Virus record (IMG/VR): IMGVR_UViG_2698536484_000028
Reading direction: 5' to 3' (one strand)
DNA length: 11,543 nt
Origin: a virus
Lineage: Duplodnaviria > Heunggongvirae > Uroviricota > Caudoviricetes
Both the position numbers and the translations under genes were made by a program. How positions within the stretch are numbered: position 1 is the stretch's first letter; each line of letters begins with the position of its first letter. Of this stretch, positions 194 to 11,543 are shown one piece after another. The notes beneath the pieces were generated by a model. It searched no databases and was not told the origin of the DNA. It was given only the letters and a program-made list of their open reading frames with translations.

Positions 194-955
194 TTACGAG
201 GAAGCGTTAGCTATTTGAGCTTGTGTAAATTCGAAACCAGAATTTTGTAACCGTTGCACTAGACGAGGAACTGTTTCACGTACATGGTCGTTGAAATTCA
301 GATACAAAATCCCGTTAGCATCAGAAGGCTGTTCTAGGTGCTGTTTCTGAAGGATTGCTACATTGCTGCGCCCTAAGGACGAAAGAAGCATACCCATCTC
401 GAGTACAACGTTCTGTCTTGCGCGGGGTTGGATTTCTGCTTCACCGGCGCGCTTTGAGTATCCCATATCATCAGGTGTCAAAAGAACAATCCCGAAACGG
501 GTAGCAGTTTGTCCTTGCCCAATTTCACGTTCAAGCTCTTCAATAATGGTGAGTCCAGTCCCTCCCGTATTCTGCAAAATGAAATGGTCTGGTAATCCAA
601 GTTTATGAAGGATTAGCTCAAGTTGCTCCTTTGCAGTATGGTCATGGCCGTGAACAATGAATATCTTTTTGGGGAGCTCAGATGGCTGTTCTACGGCTAG
701 TGGTGTTGCCGTGGGCGGCGTTCCTAAATGGGTCATTATTGCAGTTTCAACATTGGGACGTTCTTGAGGGTTACCTTGAAACTGAATGGTCCGGGTGGTG
801 TAAAGGTTAACAATTACGCCATTCGTTAAACGATAGCAGTCACAAGTCTCACGCTGTTCGTGGGAAAAATTGGTGAACCCACACTCCCTCAAAAAGTCAG
901 GAAAAGTTTCTCTCGAGTATGGATAGGTGATCGGCATTTCAGTTAGTTCCTGCAT
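194..955 (-). CDS. TIR-like (COG4271 / Cap12-PycTIR-effector-like) nucleotide-binding domain protein with an unrecognised ~75-aa N-terminal domain
   Basis: 253-aa ORF with AAGGA about 9 nt upstream of the ATG. Residues ~97-230 carry KIFIVHGHD..AKEQLELILHKLGL..GLTIIEELERE..FGIVLLTPDDMGY..NVVLEMGMLL, which I recognise as the hallmark pattern of the predicted nucleotide-binding TIR-like family. A Pro/Thr-rich linker (GTPPTATPLAVEQPSELP) joins it to the N-terminal domain. Family assignment is from memory, not a search. Confidence 0.75.
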   Translation of the reverse strand: MQELTEMPITYPYSRETFPDFLRECGFTNFSHEQRETCDCYRLTNGVIVNLYTTRTIQFQGNPQERPNVETAIMTHLGTPPTATPLAVEQPSELPKKIFIVHGHDHTAKEQLELILHKLGLPDHFILQNTGGTGLTIIEELEREIGQGQTATRFGIVLLTPDDMGYSKRAGEAEIQPRARQNVVLEMGMLLSSLGRSNVAILQKQHLEQPSDANGILYLNFNDHVRETVPRLVQRLQNSGFEFTQAQIANASS

Positions 956-1019: not shown

Positions 1020-3083
1020 TCAATCTTTTTTGTAGTGGTACGCCTCAAAACCGCCAGCGTTCAGTGGGATATCGGGCGCCCATTCGGGGTCAGTGGAGAG
1101 AAGCGCGGAAAGCGCTTTATCGTTGAAATCTTCTGTGTCAGGTGCTTCGGTGATCACCTCGTCGTGTACCGTCAGCACAATGCTGTAACCGGCATCTTCG
1201 ATAAGCGGCATGTTTCCGGCCAGAATGTCGCGGGCGGCCGCCTGGGTGATGTTCTCCACCAGCTTTCCGCCGTAGGTTTTGAGTCGTTGCCATTTACGCG
1301 AATAAGAGTTAACCCCCATGTAGGTGATATTCCCTTTTTCGATAACCGGAGACGGGTAGCATACAGCGCGTCCGGATGGTAGCTGTATGCGCAGCCACGC
1401 GCCATCGCGGCGGATTTTAAGATAACCGCAATACAATGTTTTTTGCGGTGTGGCGATTGCAGTGCGGACGGTGCGCTCCAGTTCGTACCAGAAATCACAG
1501 GTCGCGGGATGCGCCCGGCGCCAGAGACGTTTAAGTGAGTCGCAGGCGATAAATACCCGTTCAGAAAGCCCGTAGGTTGACTTGCGTTTAACCGATTCGT
1601 CGTACCAGCTTTTCGCCTCGCGGATAACATCGCGGGGAATGTTTGGTAGTGCGGCGTTCGCCAGCTCGTCGAGATCGAGACCGTAAACCAGTGCAAAAGT
1701 GATGAAGGCCGACACACCACCACCATAACCCAGACCGAGTTCCATGACTTTACCGATCTGACGCATGTGTTTATCAACATCATCTGGTGCAATATCGAAA
1801 GCTTTTGCATACGCCAGTTTATATAAGTCCGGACCCGTTCCGGCGTCGTACTCTCTGAATGCATTCAGTTTCCATTCTTCTCCCGCCAGCCATGCCAGCA
1901 TACGGCCTTCAATGTTCGACAAGTCACTTACCACCAGCTTTTTGCCTGTTGGCGCGATAATGCAGCCACGTAACGCTGAACTGGTTAGTTCCATGATATT
2001 GTCAAACAGCAGGTCTGCACATCCGGCTTTCAGTGCTTCGATGCCTTCGTCTATTTGTTCCTGTTTTAGTGAAGGGCGGGGAAGGTTCTGGGGCTGGAAT
2101 AGCCGTCCGGCCCAACGACCGGTACGTGACGCCCCGCAGAACTGTAGCGTACCGCGTAAGCGCCCGTCGTGGCTTACGCCTTTCATCAGTGCCTTGTATT
2201 TACTGGTGCTGGTAGTACTGGCCTGCAGGCGGATAGCCAGCAGTTCTTTCACGGCAGATGGTAAATCGGGGTCGGCAATACGACGTTCCAGAGTACTGCG
2301 TTGCATGTCTGGTAGCTCCACACCGTAGGATTCAACAATGTGCTTAATCAACGCGTCTCGTTGTGTGGCTGCCTGCACTTCGCCATCAGTCATTTCCTGT
2401 GTACGCTTTGCCAGGCGCTTTTGCTCCTGGTCTACCGCTTCGATCGCAGCGCGCGCGAGTTGAATGTCCATGCAGACGCCCCGGTCGTTGATCTGCTGAT
2501 CACGATGCCAGAGCGCCAGTTCTGTCCCCTGATAATTCCACTTCGGCAGACGTTTATAGACTTCGCGCATTGCCTCGATATCCAGTCCGGCGTAAGCAAC
2601 AAAGCGCCGCCATTCTTCCGGGTGGGTTTTACTGGTGGCCCGACGCAGTTTGCTGTTTTTCGGGCGTGGCTTACAGAACAGCTGGATCAGCGCTTTACCT
2701 TCTTTGTCCTTCGCTTTGTCTTGCGGGACGCCGAGTATTTCGCAGAGTTCCCCCAGAGACCCCGGGAGGCCGTGCGCCAGCGCCTGCACCATTGTGTCGC
2801 GCCAACGTTCGACTGGCGGTGCCAGGCGCGGCATTGCATAACGCAGAACGGTGCGGTCGAAGTGAGAGTTATGGAAATAAAGCAGGGTTTCAGGGTCTGC
2901 GATTGCTTCGTATAAGCCGTGTGGAATACCACCACCGGCAGTGATATCCCACACGTTTACTGGCCCGTCGTTGATAGCCCATGCGAAAAGCATCACTTCA
3001 ACGCCTTCGGCATACGCATGGGTACCGTTCGTAATAGGGATTTCGCAATAGGTTTCCAGGTCGCCCCATAGTATATTGGACAT
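1020..3083 (-). CDS. Family A (Pol I-like) DNA polymerase with N-terminal 3'-5' exonuclease domain, phage type
   Basis: 687-aa ORF with AAGG SD 7 nt upstream. Exo I-like motif WGDLETY near the N-terminus; motif A-like [15 protein letters not shown], motif B-like [16 protein letters not shown], motif C-like LTVHDEV. Confidence 0.9.
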
Positions 3084-3129: not shown

Positions 3130-3759
3130 ATGCATATGATCCAATACTTGATTGACCATACAGAGCATCTGGAGAAAATAGCTGGATATATTTTTTCATG
3201 TTTGATTGTTATGGGAGTCTGGATAAGAAAGATTATTTTTAATTATAAGTATAAAGAGCCTAAATATGTTAAGAAGTTAATTTTATATTTAGTTAAGTAT
3301 GAACGTTATCTGGATGAGGAGGATAAGAGTGCCATAGAAAAAAGAATAAATGATAAAATTATTCGTGATGCGCTGAAATTGCAATCATCTTATAACCGAA
3401 GAGATGTTATTTACATTTGCAATAGATTAGAAAAAAGACAGTATATAAATCAGTTGATTAAGCTTCAGAATTATATAGAGAAAGATAACGGAGTGTTTTT
3501 TATTAATGTTGATTTTTCAGGTTTTTTATTTATTATTAGTCGTCTGTTTTCCTTTCTGTGTTTTGTGCTGTTTACCCTTTTTTCTATTATCTGCATTATT
3601 TCCATAGGGCAAAATGAAGGCCTTTTAAATTATCTTGTGTATATGGTTATGATAATAGTTTTAGAGACTGTTGGTTTTTGGATGTATGATACTTTCCCGT
3701 CTAAGAAAAAGATCTGTGAACTAAATAAAGAATTGAGAAAGATTAAGATTCCTGAGTGA
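3130..3759 (+). CDS. Hypothetical multi-pass membrane protein encoded by a strongly AT-rich, opposite-strand insert
   Basis: 209-aa ORF on the opposite strand to its neighbours. Sample 60-nt lines count about 17-33% GC, against roughly 50% in flanking genes. Hydrophobic segments at ~aa 16-32, ~121-160 and ~168-187; Lys/Glu-rich middle region. No clear SD, and the start could be a downstream Met. Confidence 0.6.
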   Translation: MHMIQYLIDHTEHLEKIAGYIFSCLIVMGVWIRKIIFNYKYKEPKYVKKLILYLVKYERYLDEEDKSAIEKRINDKIIRDALKLQSSYNRRDVIYICNRLEKRQYINQLIKLQNYIEKDNGVFFINVDFSGFLFIISRLFSFLCFVLFTLFSIICIISIGQNEGLLNYLVYMVMIIVLETVGFWMYDTFPSKKKICELNKELRKIKIPE

Positions 3760-3811: not shown

Positions 3812-4360
3812 TTAAATTAGTGCTTCAGCATCAGCACCTTCGCTGATATCGTCGAAATCGTCAGCGCTTGCCACTCCGCCGCCAGCGAGTGCATCGCCGT
3901 CTCGCAGGAACTGGACTCCGCCGAGTGAGGCATTAATGCGTTTACCGAAATTATTGTCCTGTGCCCAGATATCGATAACGGCGTTTACATAGCACCCTGC
4001 ATAGGGACGTCCGTCAGCCTGAATAAGTGGCGAACGATCGCGATCAAGAACAGCTGGGCGCGCTTTGTTAGCAGCATTCAGGAAGAAATTACCGGGGAAG
4101 CCTTCATACTCTGCTTTTTCATCACCATCATGCAGGCACAGATTGAGTTTTTTCTCCAGCTGGTTATAAATGGGCTCCCACTTCTCTCCCCATTTTTCCT
4201 TCGCTACCTGCTTCATAGCTTTACGGATTTCTTCCAGTTGTGGGTGTTTGGGAGACATTAAAAATACTGCGGAGAAACGCGGATCGCCTTCGCCGTTTAC
4301 AGTTTTAGCTTCAAACAGAGACGGGAAGGCCAGACGAACATTGTTCAGCTTCAGTTTCAT
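3812..4360 (-). CDS. Phage SSB-like protein (DUF2815-type) with acidic C-terminal tail
   Basis: 182-aa ORF with AAGGA SD 8 nt upstream. N-terminus MKLKLNNVRLAFPSLFEAKT..PRFSAVFLMSPKHP matches my memory of the DUF2815 phage ssDNA-binding family (as in the Enc34-type replication module). C-terminal acidic tail DDFDDISEGADAEALI. Confidence 0.8.
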   Translation of the reverse strand: MKLKLNNVRLAFPSLFEAKTVNGEGDPRFSAVFLMSPKHPQLEEIRKAMKQVAKEKWGEKWEPIYNQLEKKLNLCLHDGDEKAEYEGFPGNFFLNAANKARPAVLDRDRSPLIQADGRPYAGCYVNAVIDIWAQDNNFGKRINASLGGVQFLRDGDALAGGGVASADDFDDISEGADAEALI

Positions 4361-4375
4361 GGGTATTTCCTTAAA

Positions 4376-5677
4376 TCAGATGAGGTCTGCGGTTAGCGTA
4401 TCGTCGGATACGTCGTCGAAATCATTTACAGGGTTGATATTGAGTGCGGGGCGTGGGTCTGACTCGGGAACGACGGTGGGTTTTCCATCAGCTCGTGTTA
4501 TCAGTGCCTCGACTTTTGACCAACGGCGCGGACTGGCCTTTTTGATAAGTTTTTCGGCTTTTGTGGGACTAATAAGTTTAAAGTCGAATACTTCTTCAGT
4601 TTTGTACCTGAACTGGTCCTTCAGAAGTGCGCGAGCTGCCTCTTCATCACTCCAGGCCCGGTTACCTTGTTTTCCTGTTACCAGTTTAAACCCCGGTACC
4701 GGATGTCCGGCATTGAGTTCATCGTGAACCCGGTCCCGTACTGCCTTTAGCCAGGATTCAATAAAGTCGGCCTGGCTATAGATCTCTGCAAGCTGCTCAA
4801 TGGTTAACAGAGGTACACGTGCGCTGGCATTGGTGATTATTTCGCTGACAGGCTTTGTCAGATCTTCAAAATCGCTGGCCGCTGTTTGTAAATGCTGCAT
4901 TTTCTGGGCAGTGCAAATAGCTTTTGCTTTACAGAAGCGGCACTGTTTTTCTCCAGGTATGAAGTTTTCCAGCGGTAGTGTCTCAATGCCTTCGCATTCA
5001 GCAATATTGAGAACAAGGATCGCACTGGTTGCGGCCTCCAGTGCCCGTTCACCGAAAGACTGAAGTTCCTGTACGGTTAACGACCATTCTGAAACGTGGT
5101 TGAGCCTTGGCTGGTGAATAAATAATCTTACAGTCTCAAAGTCATACAGCATGCTGAATTGTTCGAGAGCACCCAGAGCATACAGTTGTAGTTGCTCATT
5201 TTGTTCTGCATCAATGCGGACGCCTTTGCCATATTTCAGGTCGTGGATTTGTAATTCGTTACCAGCGATGATTATGCCGTCGGCAGTTCCGAAAGATTCT
5301 TCCACACCCGTTATATGTGAGAAATCAACACGTTGTTCAACCAATAGTTCATTATTCTGTGCAAGAGTCCAGACCGTATCAACATACCGGCCGACGGCTT
5401 CGACCATTTCATCATCCACCTGTGGGCCAGATGTATCATCAGGATTTTCGCGAAGGGGGTATGAGCCGAGAAACATAGAAACATTGCATCCGGCGTAGTG
5501 TTCCGGGTGGCTTTGCCTGTTTCGTAGAACTTTTTCAGCAAGCGCGTGCGCTGTAGTGCCCTCGATTGCAAAAGTTGTTTCTTTATCCGGTTGTGTGGCC
5601 TCCAGCGCCAGACTTCCTGGGCAGCGCATCCATCGATGCGCTGATGATGGAGAAAGTTGTGCGTGAACGTCTGGCAT
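4376..5677 (-). CDS. Cas4/RecB-like PD-(D/E)XK nuclease (DUF2800-type) with Cys cluster
   Basis: 433-aa ORF with GGAGGG SD 6 nt upstream. N-terminal [15 protein letters not shown]; GTADGIII and IHDLKYGKG nuclease-core-like motifs; QLQLYALGA (QxxxY); [10 protein letters not shown] plus the N-terminal Cys as a probable Fe-S/metal cluster. Acidic C-terminal tail [16 protein letters not shown]. Confidence 0.8.
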
Positions 5678-5679
5678 GA

Positions 5680-6582
5680 TTAACCCTCCAGTGCTTTTTC
5701 AGCCAGGGTGATTACTTCAGCGAGATTTTCATCCGTTACTTCACCAAGTTTCCTGGCTCCCTGTTTTTCCAGAATTGCAATAGCTTCTGCCCGGTAGCCC
5801 CCTTTTGCTAACTGGAGGATCAACCCTTCAGCTTGTTTGCGTAGTGCCGCGAAATCAATTGTATGGTCATCTTTGGCGTCATTATTCTGGCTGGAATTTG
5901 CTGCGTCTCTGCGTGCAAATTCTTCCTGCAGCTGAAGGTACTCAACACGGTTGATCTCGATATGGCCTTTTTTAAGCATCTCGTTCAACTTGCGTAAGGT
6001 GTGGAGTTCACTGGCTGCTGTGCCGGATACATTTTTGACGTAAAACGGCCCCGTGCGTTCTCCATCTTTGTTACTGGCCTTTTTCGGCTTAACTTCATCA
6101 CGCCCATCTGCAGGTGCATCAAGTAGCTGCTCGGCAAAAGCACGTCGCTCGCCGATGGTTGGCAGGTCGTCCCAGAACTTAAGGATGTTACGGGACAGGT
6201 CCAGGAGAGCAGGTTTAAGCAGCGCCCTGGCTCGTTTGACGCCCTGCAATGCGCTGTCGAGAGCATCAATCTGAACTACTCGTTTATCGCCTTCAGCATC
6301 ACGGTAGGCAACAGCACGTTGCAGCATATCTTCTGTGATAGGGGTGGCTACCGGGTAGAAACCAGCCAGTGCGATAACGTCGCTGAACTCCAGATCATCC
6401 AGTGTCATTGCCGCTGACATATTTTCAGTTTCAGTTGCTGTATCCCGACATTCCTGCACTCGTGAAATCGTGTCAGGATGCATAACAATACCTGATGCCA
6501 TTGTGCGGATAAGACGTTCAAGCAGCGCATTATGTTGTGCCAGAAGTTGATTATTAAGTTCTAGACTGGTTTCTAAACTCAT
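5680..6582 (-). CDS. Hypothetical protein, first large gene of the replication operon
   Basis: 300-aa ORF with GAGGA SD 7 nt upstream. Its start overlaps the upstream ORF stop (ATGA) and its stop is 2 nt from the nuclease start. No family recognised. Confidence 0.7.
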
Positions 6583-8918: not shown

Positions 8919-11180
8919 ATGTCTGATAACAAACCATGGGGAGCTACGCCCGATGAGTGGTTCCACTTCGATCTGGTGTTGGGGATGACAGACAGGCTTT
9001 TACCTGTGGTGTCCAATCCCTGTGCAGAACTGTCGCCTAATAGCAAGCTGTCTCATAATTTCGGCAAAACCCCCAGTCGCTACAATGGCCAACGTAAGGT
9101 TGTTGGTATCCCCGACTGGGCTAACTATGTTGTTACGGAAAACGATTTTGCCCGGTGGTCGAACGAACCCGATTACGGTATTTGCGTTCGTACTGGCGAC
9201 GGGGTGGTGGCTCTGGACTGCGATATCAATGACGCCGGGATGCAGGAGATCGTACGCAATATTATCCTATCATGCCTGGGGGAACTTCCGCCACGTCGCT
9301 GGCGGGCTGACAGTCATAAATGCCTGTACCTGATTGCTGTTGATGGCGACTACCGTAAACGTGGTCACCGCCTGGAAGGCGAAAACAAACAAATAGAGCT
9401 GCTCGCTAAGGGCCAGCAGTTTGTGGCTTGTGGTACCCATCCGGCAGGCGAACGTATTCAGTGGGACAGCGGTTTGCCCGGCGAACCTCTGAAAATTACA
9501 TCTGAACAGCTCGAAAGCCTGTGGCAGCGTCTGGCGGATAACTTACCCGTGAAAGACAGCTATACCGCAGGTGCAGGACGTCAGCGTGACCTTTCCTGTG
9601 TTGATCCTTCCGCGACAGATGATGTCGCCGACTGGCTTGACGCGAACGGGTGGACTCTGTCAGTCAGCTCTGATGGTTCCCGCAATCTGAAACCGTTTCG
9701 GGATGAGTCAGAATACAGCAACGGTTGCAGCGAAACATCCATTAAGTATTTTCCAAAAGGGACGGGGGGATTTGAACAGGGACATTTTAAAAGCATGCAC
9801 AACACCGATGCGGGGCTTACTGATGCCGACTGGCTGGAAGGCTACGGCTATACGCAATCCCTGTTCGAAGATCTCACGGTGGCTGAAGATGGCGATAAGC
9901 CTGAATTTACCGATATTAATACAGATATGACAGCTCATTTTCTGGAACGCTTTATCTACGTCATCGAGGGTGACCAGGTATGTGATCTTAGCCGACCGCC
10001 ATATCAGTGCATGATGGATATGAAGTCGTTCAAAAACCTGATGGCGCCTTACCAGTTCCCGCCAGAAGGGAAAGGACAACCAACTCCCGCAACCAAACGG
10101 TGGATAGAGCATCGGCATAAGAAGATTGCTGAGACGACAGGCTATAAGCCCGGTGCGGGACGTATTATCGAGCGTTTCGACGGGCGGTTTGAGATAAACG
10201 AATTTTATATGCCTGAGCATCCACGTACAGCGGATACAAGTAAGGTGTCCACGTTCCTTAATCATATGGCGTATCTGGTACCTGATGCCTGGCAGCGCGA
10301 GTTTTTCATCGCCCGTCTGGGGTGGATGGTTCAGCGTCCGGAGCGTCGATGCCCGATTTCTATTCTGCATGTGGCTACCGCACATGGTACGGGCAGAGGA
10401 TGGGTCAGTCAGTTAATGGAGCGCGTGCTTGGCCCGTGGAACTGTGCTCGTACTCGCATGAAGATCCTGTGCGATAACCAGTTCCATGACTATCTGTACA
10501 ATACACTTCTATGCACCATTGACGAGGTGCGCGAAAACGATAAGCGGTATGAGGTGAACGATAAGATCCGTGACGTGCTGACAGAACCACGGTTTGAAGT
10601 GAACCGCAAATATGGCAGCAAAAAAACGATGGATATATACACCGGCTTTCTGTTCTACACCAACCACTTTGATGCGCTGGCGCTGCCAGAGGAAGACCGA
10701 CGTATAGCTGTGCTGGGGGGCCCTGACTTCGCCGCAACTGAAGAGCATTACGCCAGCCTGTACGGTGCGCTAAGCGACAGCGACTTTATCGCCCAGGTGT
10801 ACTGGTATCTAATGGGCGTTGACCTGTCTCGCTTTAACTGGCAGCGCGCCCCCGAGACGAAAGAACGCCTTCTGATGATTGAAAGCAATAAGAGCGATGT
10901 GGAGGCTGCTCTTATTGAAATCCTGGATAATCCGCCTGTGCCAGCAATGACTTATCAACAAATTGTTAACGCAATACTGGCAGAAGCAGGAATGGATGTA
11001 GAAATTAACCAGAAGCATATTACTCGCATTTTGAAAGAAAGAACAAAGCGGGAACCCGTACGCGTAAAAATTGACGGGTTTGTATATAGGATTTGGATTC
11101 TTGTAAAAAATAACGATTTCAGCAACGAAGAATTGCGCGAAATATATAAATCTTGCGAAATTTTGCAATCTGGATTGTAA
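8919..11180 (+). CDS. Replication initiator: AEP-type primase-polymerase N-terminal domain fused to an SF3-helicase-like NTPase domain
   Basis: 753-aa ORF. N-terminal GICVRTGDGVVALDCD (hhhDhD-type AEP motif). C-terminal region has P-loop-like ILHVATAHGTGRGW, Walker B-like LLCTIDEV and motif C-like FYTNHF. An iteron origin lies immediately downstream. Confidence 0.8.
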   Translation: MSDNKPWGATPDEWFHFDLVLGMTDRLLPVVSNPCAELSPNSKLSHNFGKTPSRYNGQRKVVGIPDWANYVVTENDFARWSNEPDYGICVRTGDGVVALDCDINDAGMQEIVRNIILSCLGELPPRRWRADSHKCLYLIAVDGDYRKRGHRLEGENKQIELLAKGQQFVACGTHPAGERIQWDSGLPGEPLKITSEQLESLWQRLADNLPVKDSYTAGAGRQRDLSCVDPSATDDVADWLDANGWTLSVSSDGSRNLKPFRDESEYSNGCSETSIKYFPKGTGGFEQGHFKSMHNTDAGLTDADWLEGYGYTQSLFEDLTVAEDGDKPEFTDINTDMTAHFLERFIYVIEGDQVCDLSRPPYQCMMDMKSFKNLMAPYQFPPEGKGQPTPATKRWIEHRHKKIAETTGYKPGAGRIIERFDGRFEINEFYMPEHPRTADTSKVSTFLNHMAYLVPDAWQREFFIARLGWMVQRPERRCPISILHVATAHGTGRGWVSQLMERVLGPWNCARTRMKILCDNQFHDYLYNTLLCTIDEVRENDKRYEVNDKIRDVLTEPRFEVNRKYGSKKTMDIYTGFLFYTNHFDALALPEEDRRIAVLGGPDFAATEEHYASLYGALSDSDFIAQVYWYLMGVDLSRFNWQRAPETKERLLMIESNKSDVEAALIEILDNPPVPAMTYQQIVNAILAEAGMDVEINQKHITRILKERTKREPVRVKIDGFVYRIWILVKNNDFSNEELREIYKSCEILQSGL

Positions 11181-11183
11181 AAA

Positions 11184-11437
11184 GGTGACGGCTAGGTGAC
11201 GGCAAAACGCTTAAGCGTCACCTTAAAAAGTATATATAAAACAATGGGGAATGTGCTAAAGGTGACAGGTGACGGCAGAATTTAAAACTATATACGCGAG
11301 AGTGTGTATTTTAGGTATTATACGATCGCTTATATATATATAGAACTAAAATCAACCGTCACCTGTCACCTAAAACATCTTCAGGCTTTATATGGCGCGC
11401 TTTGCAGCAGGTGACGGATATGTAATTACGCGTCACC
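11184..11437. repeat. Iteron-type replication origin: eight GGTGAC(G/A)G repeats in both orientations around an AT-rich spacer
   Basis: GGTGACGG at 11184-11191, 11195-11202 and 11410-11417. Tandem GGTGACAGGTGACGG at 11261-11275 and its exact reverse complement CCGTCACCTGTCACC at 11356-11370, flanking an ~80-bp AT-rich segment that includes TATATATATATAG. Inverted CGTCACC at 11216-11222 and 11431-11437. Confidence 0.6.
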
Positions 11438-11440
11438 TAG

Positions 11441-11543
11441 GGAAGGTGCGAACAAGTCCCTGATATGAGATCATGTTTGTCATCTGGAGCCATGGAACAG
11501 GGTTCATCATGAGTCATCAACTTACCTTCGCCGACAGTGAATT
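11441..11543 (+). mobile_element. Left end of IS5 (terminal inverted repeat plus start of transposase), truncated by the window edge
   Basis: GGAAGGTGCGAACAAG at 11441-11456 matches the IS5 terminal repeat as I remember it and is preceded by CTAG (a typical IS5 target). The downstream sequence matches the known IS5 left end up to the transposase start. Confidence 0.8.
11509..11543 (+). CDS. insH: IS5 transposase InsH, N-terminal fragment
   Basis: ATG at 11509 translates to MSHQLTFADSEF.., the N-terminus of IS5 transposase as recalled. The ORF runs off the window. Confidence 0.75.
   Translation, partial: MSHQLTFADSE

Follow-up and report, generated by a model that had tools for sequence, protein, structure and literature searches.

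A C-terminal motif that changes in step in a DUF2800 nuclease and the neighbouring gp2.5-type single-stranded DNA-binding protein of tailed phages suggests a shared docking site

The window analysed here, the whole 11,543-nucleotide stretch of Caudoviricetes DNA held as IMG/VR record IMGVR_UViG_2698536484_000028, is the replication region of an Escherichia coli prophage and is matched by Escherichia phage vB_EcoM-606R2 at 98.5% identity over 98% of its length. Two adjacent genes on its minus strand encode a nuclease of the DUF2800 family and an SSB (single-stranded DNA-binding protein) of the Enc34/T7 gp2.5 type, and both proteins end in a tail built around the same Phe-centred acidic motif. 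Comparison of the two tails across related loci revealed that they change in step, genome by genome, in the aligned sequences. From this pattern we infer that the shared tail is very probably a functional, co-evolving docking motif. The two genes, their tails and the two elements of each tail, motif 1 around the anchor Phe and a terminal motif 2, are listed below; tail and motif positions were confirmed by translation.

4376-5677, minus strand: gene for the DUF2800 / PD-(D/E)XK, Cas4-like nuclease, 433 amino acids (Pfam PF10926 and PF12705)
4379-4426, minus strand: nuclease tail, residues 418-433
4406-4426, minus strand: nuclease motif 1, NDFDDVS, with anchor F420
4379-4387, minus strand: nuclease terminal motif 2, DLI
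3812-4360, minus strand: gene for the Enc34 / T7 gp2.5-type SSB, 182 amino acids (Pfam PF10991)
3815-3865, minus strand: SSB tail, residues 166-182, ADDFDDISEGADAEALI
3842-3862, minus strand: SSB motif 1, DDFDDIS, with anchor F169
3815-3823, minus strand: SSB terminal motif 2, ALI

The first-pass annotation of this DNA, made from the letters alone, had named the two products an SSB and a Cas4-like nuclease ending in a common acidic tail, and both the tail sequences and the two identities were borne out. The SSB matched PF10991 (DUF2815) with 150.7 bits (cut-off 26, E 4.3e-44) over residues 1-175, and its relatives in the PDB include 4jg2, 5odj and 4klk (E 6e-17 to 2e-14). Its AlphaFold2 (AF2) model comprises strands at residues 2-35, a helix at 42-70 and strands at 76-153, that is, an oligonucleotide/oligosaccharide-binding (OB) fold with a long helix after strand 2, which ends at about residue 153 and is followed by a Gly-rich GGG linker and an acidic, low-confidence tail (residues 154-182; predicted local distance difference test score, pLDDT, below 50 at 159-163 and about 60 over 164-180). 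Asp or Glu occupies seven of the last 17 SSB positions, and the longer C-terminal stretch ends ..GGGVASADDFDDISEGADAEALI. Within this SSB family, preferential binding of single-stranded DNA (ssDNA) has been shown experimentally only for Enc34 ORF6, and the Enc34 SSB without its last 21 residues binds double-stranded DNA (PMC5686142).

The nuclease matched PF10926 (DUF2800) with 369.6 bits (E 2.4e-110) and also PF12705, and has a PD-(D/E)XK core. Its AF2 model has a mean pLDDT of 92.6, with the fold extending to about residue 410 and values of 79/64/54 over residues 411-433, and Foldseek placed it near the Cas4-family protein ACE1 (E 1.6e-6), Dna2 (1.4e-4), SSO0001 Cas4, AdnA and RecE. The catalytic triad D133, D146 and K148 and the cysteines C19, C249 and C255 are invariant among 125 homologues of 39-60% identity, and C246 is conserved in at least 90% of them; by fold and conservation, the four Cys bracket the RecB-like nuclease fold as they do in Cas4, AddB and Dna2-type iron-sulfur nucleases, with the cluster itself being a prediction. 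No Cas family was found among the ten window open reading frames (ORFs) scanned against Pfam, and the nuclease gene lies between a hypothetical gene and the SSB gene; judged from the model, the label 'Cas4-like' is right for the nuclease fold only. A family member from phage Bas14, B14T, is an active PD-(D/E)XK nuclease that cuts at the base of DNA stem-loops; its C-terminal region was noted just as disordered, by prediction, and its role in the phage was stated as unknown (bioRxiv 10.64898/2026.07.14.737667).

Within the window the match between the two tails is confined to these two proteins. Among 119 ORFs of at least 40 amino acids, the SSB and the nuclease are the only ones that carry the motif in their last 30 residues, and the local alignment score of the two tails (34) was reached in 18 of 20,000 composition-preserving shuffles. 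The DNA that encodes the tails, aligned on the Phe codon, is identical at 27 of 48 positions. A 10-nucleotide word shared by the two genes, CGTCGAAATC, had been reported before, and it does occur twice (2 matches against 0.02 expected), the sites being 3850-3859 and 4414-4423 and not 3848-3857 and 4415-4424; on sequence grounds the word is a by-product of the Asp-Phe-Asp-Asp codons. A common terminal A[ED]LI had likewise been read into both proteins. The chains end in EALI and ADLI, with the terminal LI common to both and placed at the same distance from the Phe (F+12 and F+13).

We judged conservation of the nuclease tail on cluster representatives (one per 50%-identity cluster, 150 of 17,219 matching clusters), the closest 120 homologues being too near the query; the nuclease search also matched 1,741 phage records. 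Most of the 150 tails read ..SDKRPAL-x(5-8)-[DE][DE]F-x-[DE]-[LIV]-[TS].., often followed by ..DL[VI] at the end. F420 is conserved in at least 90% of 31 diverse homologues and likewise of the 125 homologues, F169 in at least 90% of 52 SSB homologues, and motif 1 was present in 108 of 120 SSB homologues, most of which end in [DSA]L[VI]. A set of 82 loci was then assembled, consisting of 80 from species-representative genomes, found with a profile of a 10-sequence alignment and spanning Proteobacteria, Firmicutes, Bacteroidota and Actinobacteria, together with phages BcepC6B and 2638A; the nucleases are 33-75% identical to that of the window. In all 77 loci long enough to show it, the nuclease gene and the SSB gene are neighbours. 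In the diverse loci the anchor Phe is found in 77/78 nucleases and in 73/78 SSBs, or about 76/78 once three misaligned SSBs are corrected, and position by position the composition around it is nearly identical in both proteins (-2 D/N, -1 D/E, +1 D/E, +2 D, +3 L/I/V, +4 S/T), giving the consensus x-[DN]-[DE]-F-[DE]-D-[LIV]-[ST]. In Proteobacterial lineages the chain end consists of acidic residues plus a hydrophobic residue (..DL[VI] or ..[DE]F[AV]).

A specificity scan of the 82 loci, which covered about 10,750 ORFs of at least 50 amino acids in six frames, detected the motif among the 30 C-terminal residues in 53/77 SSBs and 39/82 nucleases, and in just 15 of the other roughly 10,600 ORFs, two of which are fragments of split nucleases. 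No third protein family with the same tail was found within 8 kb in these loci. Both tails are thus kept in homologues, as the earlier proposal of a common docking peptide predicted, and beyond that they co-vary. As to the split genes, the nuclease reading frame is interrupted by a frameshift in L088 (7947-9305) and L117 (5916-7295), and the downstream fragment ORF keeps an intact tail, one of them ending ..DDFEVVTADDGGDLC (L117).

The co-variation is visible by direct comparison of the nuclease and SSB tails of the same phage or locus (locus labels in brackets):

Castellaniella (L105, L121): nuclease LDGF, SSB LDGF
Actinobacterial-type prophage (L161): nuclease DGFGD..SDLFS, SSB EGFGE..SDLF
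Paracoccaceae locus (L118): nuclease GFKAV, SSB GFKAV
Accumulibacter/Thauera (L123, L149): nuclease EFQPV, SSB EFAPV
Xenorhabdus (L087), and likewise L089: nuclease ending ..MFS, SSB ending ..VFN
Burkholderia (BcepC6B): nuclease EDDFEV, SSB EDDFEA
Chi-like Salmonella phage: nuclease ..GAWDDEDDDEV, SSB ..DAWDEDEDWEDEV, in short form AWDEDEDWEDEV
Jersey-like SE2: nuclease ..EDDLEA, SSB ..VDDLED..
Dhillonvirus: nuclease ..DEDLSNE, SSB ..DEDLDND..
9NA: nuclease ..ESVFNTPVTMPAGARPL (also given as SVFNTPVTMPAGA and ESVFNTPVTMPAGA), SSB ..ASVFGAVPAMPAGATAIG.. (also SVFGAVPAMPAGA and ASVFGAVPAMPAGA)
KB2: nuclease SVF, SSB SVF
Vibrio phage 1.037.O: nuclease KGTFGKVSK, SSB TKSFGSVSN
Pondi: nuclease IALNQP, SSB SILNQAP

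The anchor can be F, W, L or I and its flanks can be acidic, neutral or basic, and each time the nuclease matches its own SSB. The tail score was 27.3 for same-genome pairs versus 21.4 for permuted pairs (z 10.3; 0 of 20,000 permutations), identity at the seven positions around the anchor gave z 9.5 and identity over the last three residues z 7.1. Individual features follow the same trend, with a Gly at -1 (Fisher p 1.6e-6) and a near-terminal aromatic residue (p 2e-4) tending to be common to both tails. Because shared ancestry inflates tests of this kind, the permutations were repeated with one genome per nuclease cluster, and z remained at 12.9, 9.9 and 6.7 for 58, 29 and 15 clusters, respectively. 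In the strictest of these sets (15 clusters, nucleases less than 45% identical between clusters), a nuclease's own SSB ranked in the top three in 12 of 15 cases. In 71 genomes, residues identical between the two tails were encoded by the same codon in 152 cases, where local codon usage predicts 153.2. With no excess of shared codons, the match does not stem from DNA exchange, and it is the peptide that is under selection; gene conversion or recent duplication of the tail DNA is rejected on these counts and on the modest identity of the tail-coding DNA in the window.

In the SSBs, motif 1 lies directly after the OB fold, and it does so even in proteins with a long Pro/Ala-rich linker and a separate terminal mini-domain. 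It appears that the tails of gp2.5-type SSBs combine a proximal anchor motif with a distal tip as two elements, and are not acidic tails of one generic kind. The SSBs of 9NA, Pondi, Vibrio phage 1.037.O and KB2 (L166, L169, L170, L171) continue with Pro/Ala-rich repeats and then a conserved mini-domain, YTYEQF..GWT[DE]E..NG, which is duplicated in the SSB of the Vibrio phage. The L155 SSB (ORF 9215-10075) ends in ..TVDDLPF, which resembles the tip of bacterial SSBs, and in all five of these SSBs (L155, L166, L169, L170, L171) the proximal anchor motif is retained despite replacement of the distal acidic tail. A further variant, unusual for an SSB tail, is seen in Jersey-like SE2 (L164) and Dhillonvirus TheodorHerzl (L165), whose SSBs carry strongly basic ends, ..RRERRRNR and ..APRKRRRR, after acidic repeats.

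Parallel change of the motif in nuclease and SSB means that both tails would have to fit one co-evolving receptor surface encoded by the phage. Phages of E. coli and Salmonella alone use DFDD, AWDED..DEV, DDLE, DEDL, SVF..MPAGA and ILNQ versions, and in each of these genomes nuclease and SSB agree; the existence of such different matched motifs in phages of the same host rules out a conserved host receptor. The receptor is therefore probably encoded by the phage. The window contains three further proteins that come into question as partners, and the C-termini of all three are unrelated to the shared tail:

1020-3083, minus strand: family-A DNA polymerase (Pfam DNA_pol_A; all PDB matches of the Pol I/Taq type), third gene of the nuclease-SSB-polymerase triad
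5680-6582, minus strand: protein of 300 amino acids that adjoins the nuclease gene upstream, without a Pfam hit, matching phrog_6784 and phrog_408
8919-11180, plus strand: primase-helicase with Prim-Pol and DUF5906 (D5/SF3-type, superfamily 3) domains (Pfam PF09250 and PF19263)

Considering both the sequences and the published structures, we tentatively favour the SSB itself as the receptor. In SSB-family crystals (5ODJ, 5ODK/5ODL, 4JG2, 4KLK) a tail segment lies on a neighbouring SSB molecule; the Enc34 paper gives this placement for two DUF2815 crystal structures besides its own and for gp2.5, in an arrangement that fits continuous ssDNA binding (PMC5686142). The adjacency of the nuclease and SSB genes, the fixed place of motif 1 next to the OB fold and the altered DNA binding of the truncated Enc34 SSB also count in favour of this choice. 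The Enc34 chain can be traced to about residue 188, and the truncation primer, the construct ending ..DDEPFGE at residue 178 and our alignment identify Tyr187 as the equivalent of F169; going by the published text, Tyr187 would stand right at the end of the stretch described as entering a groove of the neighbouring molecule. Each protein would then consist of a folded core and a flexible tail whose hydrophobic anchor, in most cases Phe, is set in surroundings that are particular to the lineage and as a rule acidic, and both tails would fit one groove on the SSB OB domain, formed by the concave sheet and the N-terminal strands. Among SSBs, motif 1 would serve as a protomer-to-protomer contact or for self-occlusion, and the nuclease, carrying a copy of the motif, would plug into free SSB or into an SSB-coated ssDNA tract in place of another SSB. 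In this way a Dna2/AddB/Cas4-like nuclease for ends or flaps would be coupled to the ssDNA that is generated or trimmed. The distal acidic run with its hydrophobic end (..DLI), shared in Proteobacterial lineages including the window, may provide a second, T7-type contact. It is conceivable, with somewhat greater reserve than for the choice of receptor, that the nuclease tail is a mimic of the SSB protomer contact by which the nuclease inserts into or caps the SSB coat, using the groove that neighbouring SSBs use.

Several points weigh against placing the receptor on the SSB. Crystal packing may have produced the contacts of the SSB tail as an artefact, and for T7, whose system is homologous, it is the polymerase that has been proven to receive both the gp2.5 and the gp4 tail (PMC12339929). 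The AF2 monomer models have low confidence for both tails (about 54-64 in the nuclease) and lend no support to docking in cis; as far as the models go, this is consistent with flexible tails. A charge scan of the SSB core against tail charge gave weak correlations, of which V52 (r -0.51) is an uncharged position and K2 (-0.47) and K4 (-0.34) are weaker still, and the scan of the nuclease core found the conserved K331, R340 and K250 weakly correlated with tail acidity (best |r| over both cores about 0.5). Arg9, in the N-terminal SSB strand, is mostly kept in acidic and non-acidic lineages alike, with some exceptions, and so carries no information on this point. Finally, the permutation statistics leave some shared ancestry in the data, yet inspection by eye picks out a dozen or more independent matches that are specific to a lineage.

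A T7-like arrangement, in which both tails dock on the module's DNA polymerase and SSB and nuclease alternate there, for instance for SSB displacement and primer or flap removal, is in our judgement unlikely. In its favour, the SSB belongs to the gp2.5 fold family, and the analogy with T7 that had been drawn for this window holds at the level of sequence, since the tails of gp2.5 (..ESWDEDDEESEEADEDGDF) and gp4 (..STDWSNDTDF) are both acidic with a Trp and a terminal Phe. The gp2.5 tail has been modelled by molecular dynamics on the front basic patch of gp5 and is taken to bind there, and the T7 structure 6P7E contains a DTDF peptide in imitation of the gp4 tail (PMC12339929). The window polymerase has no 5' nuclease domain, so recruitment of a nuclease would make sense, and wherever a contig continues for more than about 3.5 kb beyond the SSB (or nuclease) gene, the SSB gene is followed by a polymerase gene (64 of family A and 5 of family B). 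It is this last distinction that speaks against the polymerase. Family A is found in the window, BcepC6B, 2638A and the Chi-like, Jersey-like and Dhillonvirus phages, family B in L123, L127, L131, L149, L157, 9NA (L166), 7-7-1 (L167), RcDora (L168), KB2, Pondi and Vibrio 1.037.O (L169-L171). The two groups did not detect each other in iterative searches, and a profile of the second group had 73 PDB matches, of which family B makes up 60 of the 60 among the matches listed. Nevertheless, the slot's two unrelated occupants are accompanied by the same canonical motif, which stands beside family B in RcDora (MDDFDDLD / DDDFDELE), L131 (EDDFEIV / VDDFDDF), L127 and the 9NA type, with the terminal ..DLV in L123; the family-A polymerase named by the first-pass annotation is hence not supported as the conserved receptor. 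It is simpler to suppose that one receptor stayed constant through exchanges of the polymerase than that two unrelated polymerases each gained a site for the same peptide, which makes the polymerase a weak candidate. In addition, motif 1 adjoins the OB fold and not the tip in long-tailed SSBs, and the matched motifs include neutral and basic ones, in contrast to what a basic patch would bind. The family-B polymerase of the module is barely detected by Pfam and is annotated as hypothetical in several records (Pondi, Vibrio 1.037.O). Loci that had seemed to be 'polymerase-less' do have a polymerase, of family B, and that category was rejected.

A common receptor elsewhere in the replisome, be it the primase/SF3-helicase, a SNF2-type helicase or the small protein upstream of the nuclease, strikes us as a little less likely still. 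A large primase with a D5/VapE-type helicase is present in the window and in the lineages checked regardless of polymerase family, comparable primase/SF3-helicases being found in L123, L127 and Vibrio phage 1.037.O and annotated in 9NA, BcepC6B and RcDora, and the T7 gp2.5 tail has also been reported to bind the primase-helicase (PMC5686142). On the other hand, homologues of the window primase-helicase occur within 8 kb in just 41/82 loci, primase domains vary by lineage (Prim-Pol, PriCT_2, RepB-type), and such contacts have no structural precedent in the SSB family. The 300-residue upstream protein is a weaker candidate. Its C-terminal helical domain of about 60 residues (about 240-295) was found upstream of the nuclease in 61/82 loci by jackhmmer and position analysis, but across lineages the upstream proteins belong to unrelated PHROG families. 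The helical domain has the pattern ..GR.AA..LL..FGA.KLSEV..E.Y.. and is preceded by a low-complexity acidic/Thr-rich linker, and the proteins that host it are otherwise variable (phrog_408, phrog_6784).

It is improbable that the receiving site lies on the nuclease, where its own tail would occupy it (auto-inhibition or dimerisation) until displaced by the SSB tail, so that the nuclease would be activated or recruited only at SSB-coated ssDNA. This arrangement would account for the co-variation and for the strict linkage of the two genes equally well as a receptor on the SSB, and the weak correlations of K331, R340 and K250 are in line with it. However, AF2 places the nuclease tail without confidence (pLDDT 54-64), there is no structural precedent, and T7 gp2.5 has the motif at the same position in a phage without a DUF2800 nuclease, suggesting that the primary role of the motif predates, or is independent of, the nuclease. 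Mimicry of the host is less probable still. The tails would imitate the C-terminal tip of bacterial SSBs and so tap host SSB-interacting proteins; DFDD[IV] does resemble the DFDDDI of the E. coli SSB tip, ..MDFDDDIPF, and the L155 SSB has acquired its ..TVDDLPF end. The window tails, though, end in ..AEALI and ..TADLI, with LI instead of IPF, no bacterial-SSB-type [IL]-P-F terminus and an internal Phe, and a conserved host receptor could not drive the very different matched motifs of phages that share E. coli or Salmonella as a host, which makes it unlikely that the resemblance reflects a host-directed signal. Least credible of all is the absence of any shared partner, that is, chance among acidic tails, independent cis-acting DNA-mimic tails or homogenisation of the DNA by gene conversion, because, even if acidic tails are common in SSBs and the two genes have an exact 10-mer in common, the shuffled tails rarely reach the observed score, the co-variation includes non-acidic variants and neither the codon counts nor the tail DNA point to exchange.

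The remainder of the window contains further features of this mosaic region. Nuclease and SSB genes are in the same frame (4358-4378), separated by a TGA and five codons; a read-through fusion of the two was rejected, the in-frame arrangement in 23/77 loci being the rate expected by chance. Between the SSB and polymerase genes lies, on the opposite strand, an ORF of 209 codons (3130-3759, plus strand) within an island of 26.8% guanine-plus-cytosine (GC) content; it has no Pfam or PADLOC match and resembles a membrane protein. The GC trough at 3201-3600 marks an AT-rich insert that separates the two genes, and since relatives carry inserts of differing length in the same gap, the site may be a hotspot for cargo genes (morons). 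Downstream of the polymerase a further gene was found:

194-955, minus strand: TIR-domain protein, 253 amino acids (Pfam CAP12-PCTIR_TIR, E 3e-31; PADLOC PDC-S35, a candidate defence family, E 4e-109)

This is probably an anti-phage gene borne by the prophage. Positions 1-115 are 95-100% identical to many Shiga toxin (Stx)-converting phages and positions 11433-11543 correspond to an IS5 terminus (97-100% identity), and with a left end like that of Stx phages and IS5 at the right end the replication module is flanked by mobile or mosaic sequence.

The DUF2800-SSB-polymerase module is among the most widespread replication/recombination cassettes of tailed phages and prophages, and a co-evolving peptide limited to the nuclease and the SSB offers a cheap and concrete handle on what the nuclease does for the phage. 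The matched-motif rule could also aid annotation of cognate nuclease/SSB pairs and the design of orthogonal recombineering pairs, and could shed light on defence systems by which the two proteins are sensed (retron IX, Retron-Eco8).

Among known systems, T7 gp2.5 and gp4 come closest. The SSB is of the same OB-fold family, the tail is disordered, acidic and aromatic, and another enzyme of the same machinery has a tail to match; moreover, besides its distal acidic tail, gp2.5 has the sequence EDDWADE immediately following its GGG linker, in the place that motif 1 takes here. In T7 (L172) gp2.5 has two Trp-containing acidic motifs, EDDWADE and the distal ESWDED, and the gp4 tail has TDWSND before the terminal DF, so that the T7 tails may be two-part like the nuclease and SSB tails described here. 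The differences are that the second protein here is a PD-(D/E)XK/Cas4-like nuclease and not a helicase-primase, that the essential C-terminal Phe of T7 is missing, both window tails ending in Ile with the Phe 13 residues from the end (only some lineages, L087, L089, L107, L128 and L161, have an aromatic residue at or near the terminus), and that the motif here persists with family-B polymerases and in non-acidic forms, with a receptor that is still a candidate. Enc34 ORF6 and the other DUF2815 SSBs have their tail at the same position (..AADDFTTIE in 4JG2, ..SDAYDEDEDE in Enc34), but the published work treats the tail as a feature of the SSB only, and the tail match with the nuclease and the co-variation are not mentioned (PMC5686142). 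The gene order duf2800-gp2.5-polA has already been described as a module (Front Microbiol 2021, PMC8093625); it is the same three-gene module with the DUF2800 nuclease, to which Bas14 B14T also belongs, whereas the polymerase slot here is not restricted to polA and the motif common to nuclease and SSB is unreported in both sources (PMC8093625, bioRxiv 10.64898/2026.07.14.737667). We found no description of the shared tail in the DUF2800/DUF2815 papers, the Enc34 paper, a survey of single-strand annealing proteins or the Bas14 preprint; the principle that an SSB and a second replisome enzyme share a tail is already established for T7 gp2.5 and gp4, and its nuclease version appears not to have been described before.

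The tip of the E. coli SSB is likewise a short acidic-plus-hydrophobic docking peptide at the end of a flexible SSB tail, with a local likeness in DFDD..I, but there the partners hold pockets for the tip, whereas here the partner enzyme carries a copy of the SSB peptide and the IPF-COOH is absent. In lambda Exo-Red beta and RecE-RecT, which are exonuclease/annealase pairs, adjacent genes for a nuclease and an ssDNA-binding or annealing protein also form a specific pair; the lambda contact is made by the folded C-terminal domain of Red beta on Exo and not by shared tails. The FxxA oligomerisation motif of RAD51 is mimicked by the BRC repeats of BRCA2, and if the SSB is indeed the receptor, the analogy would be that a partner copies the protomer contact motif of a DNA-coating protein, the proteins themselves being unrelated. 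The nuclease tail would then represent a phage counterpart of BRC-repeat/RAD51 mimicry, long kept in a very large gene family whatever the family of the polymerase.

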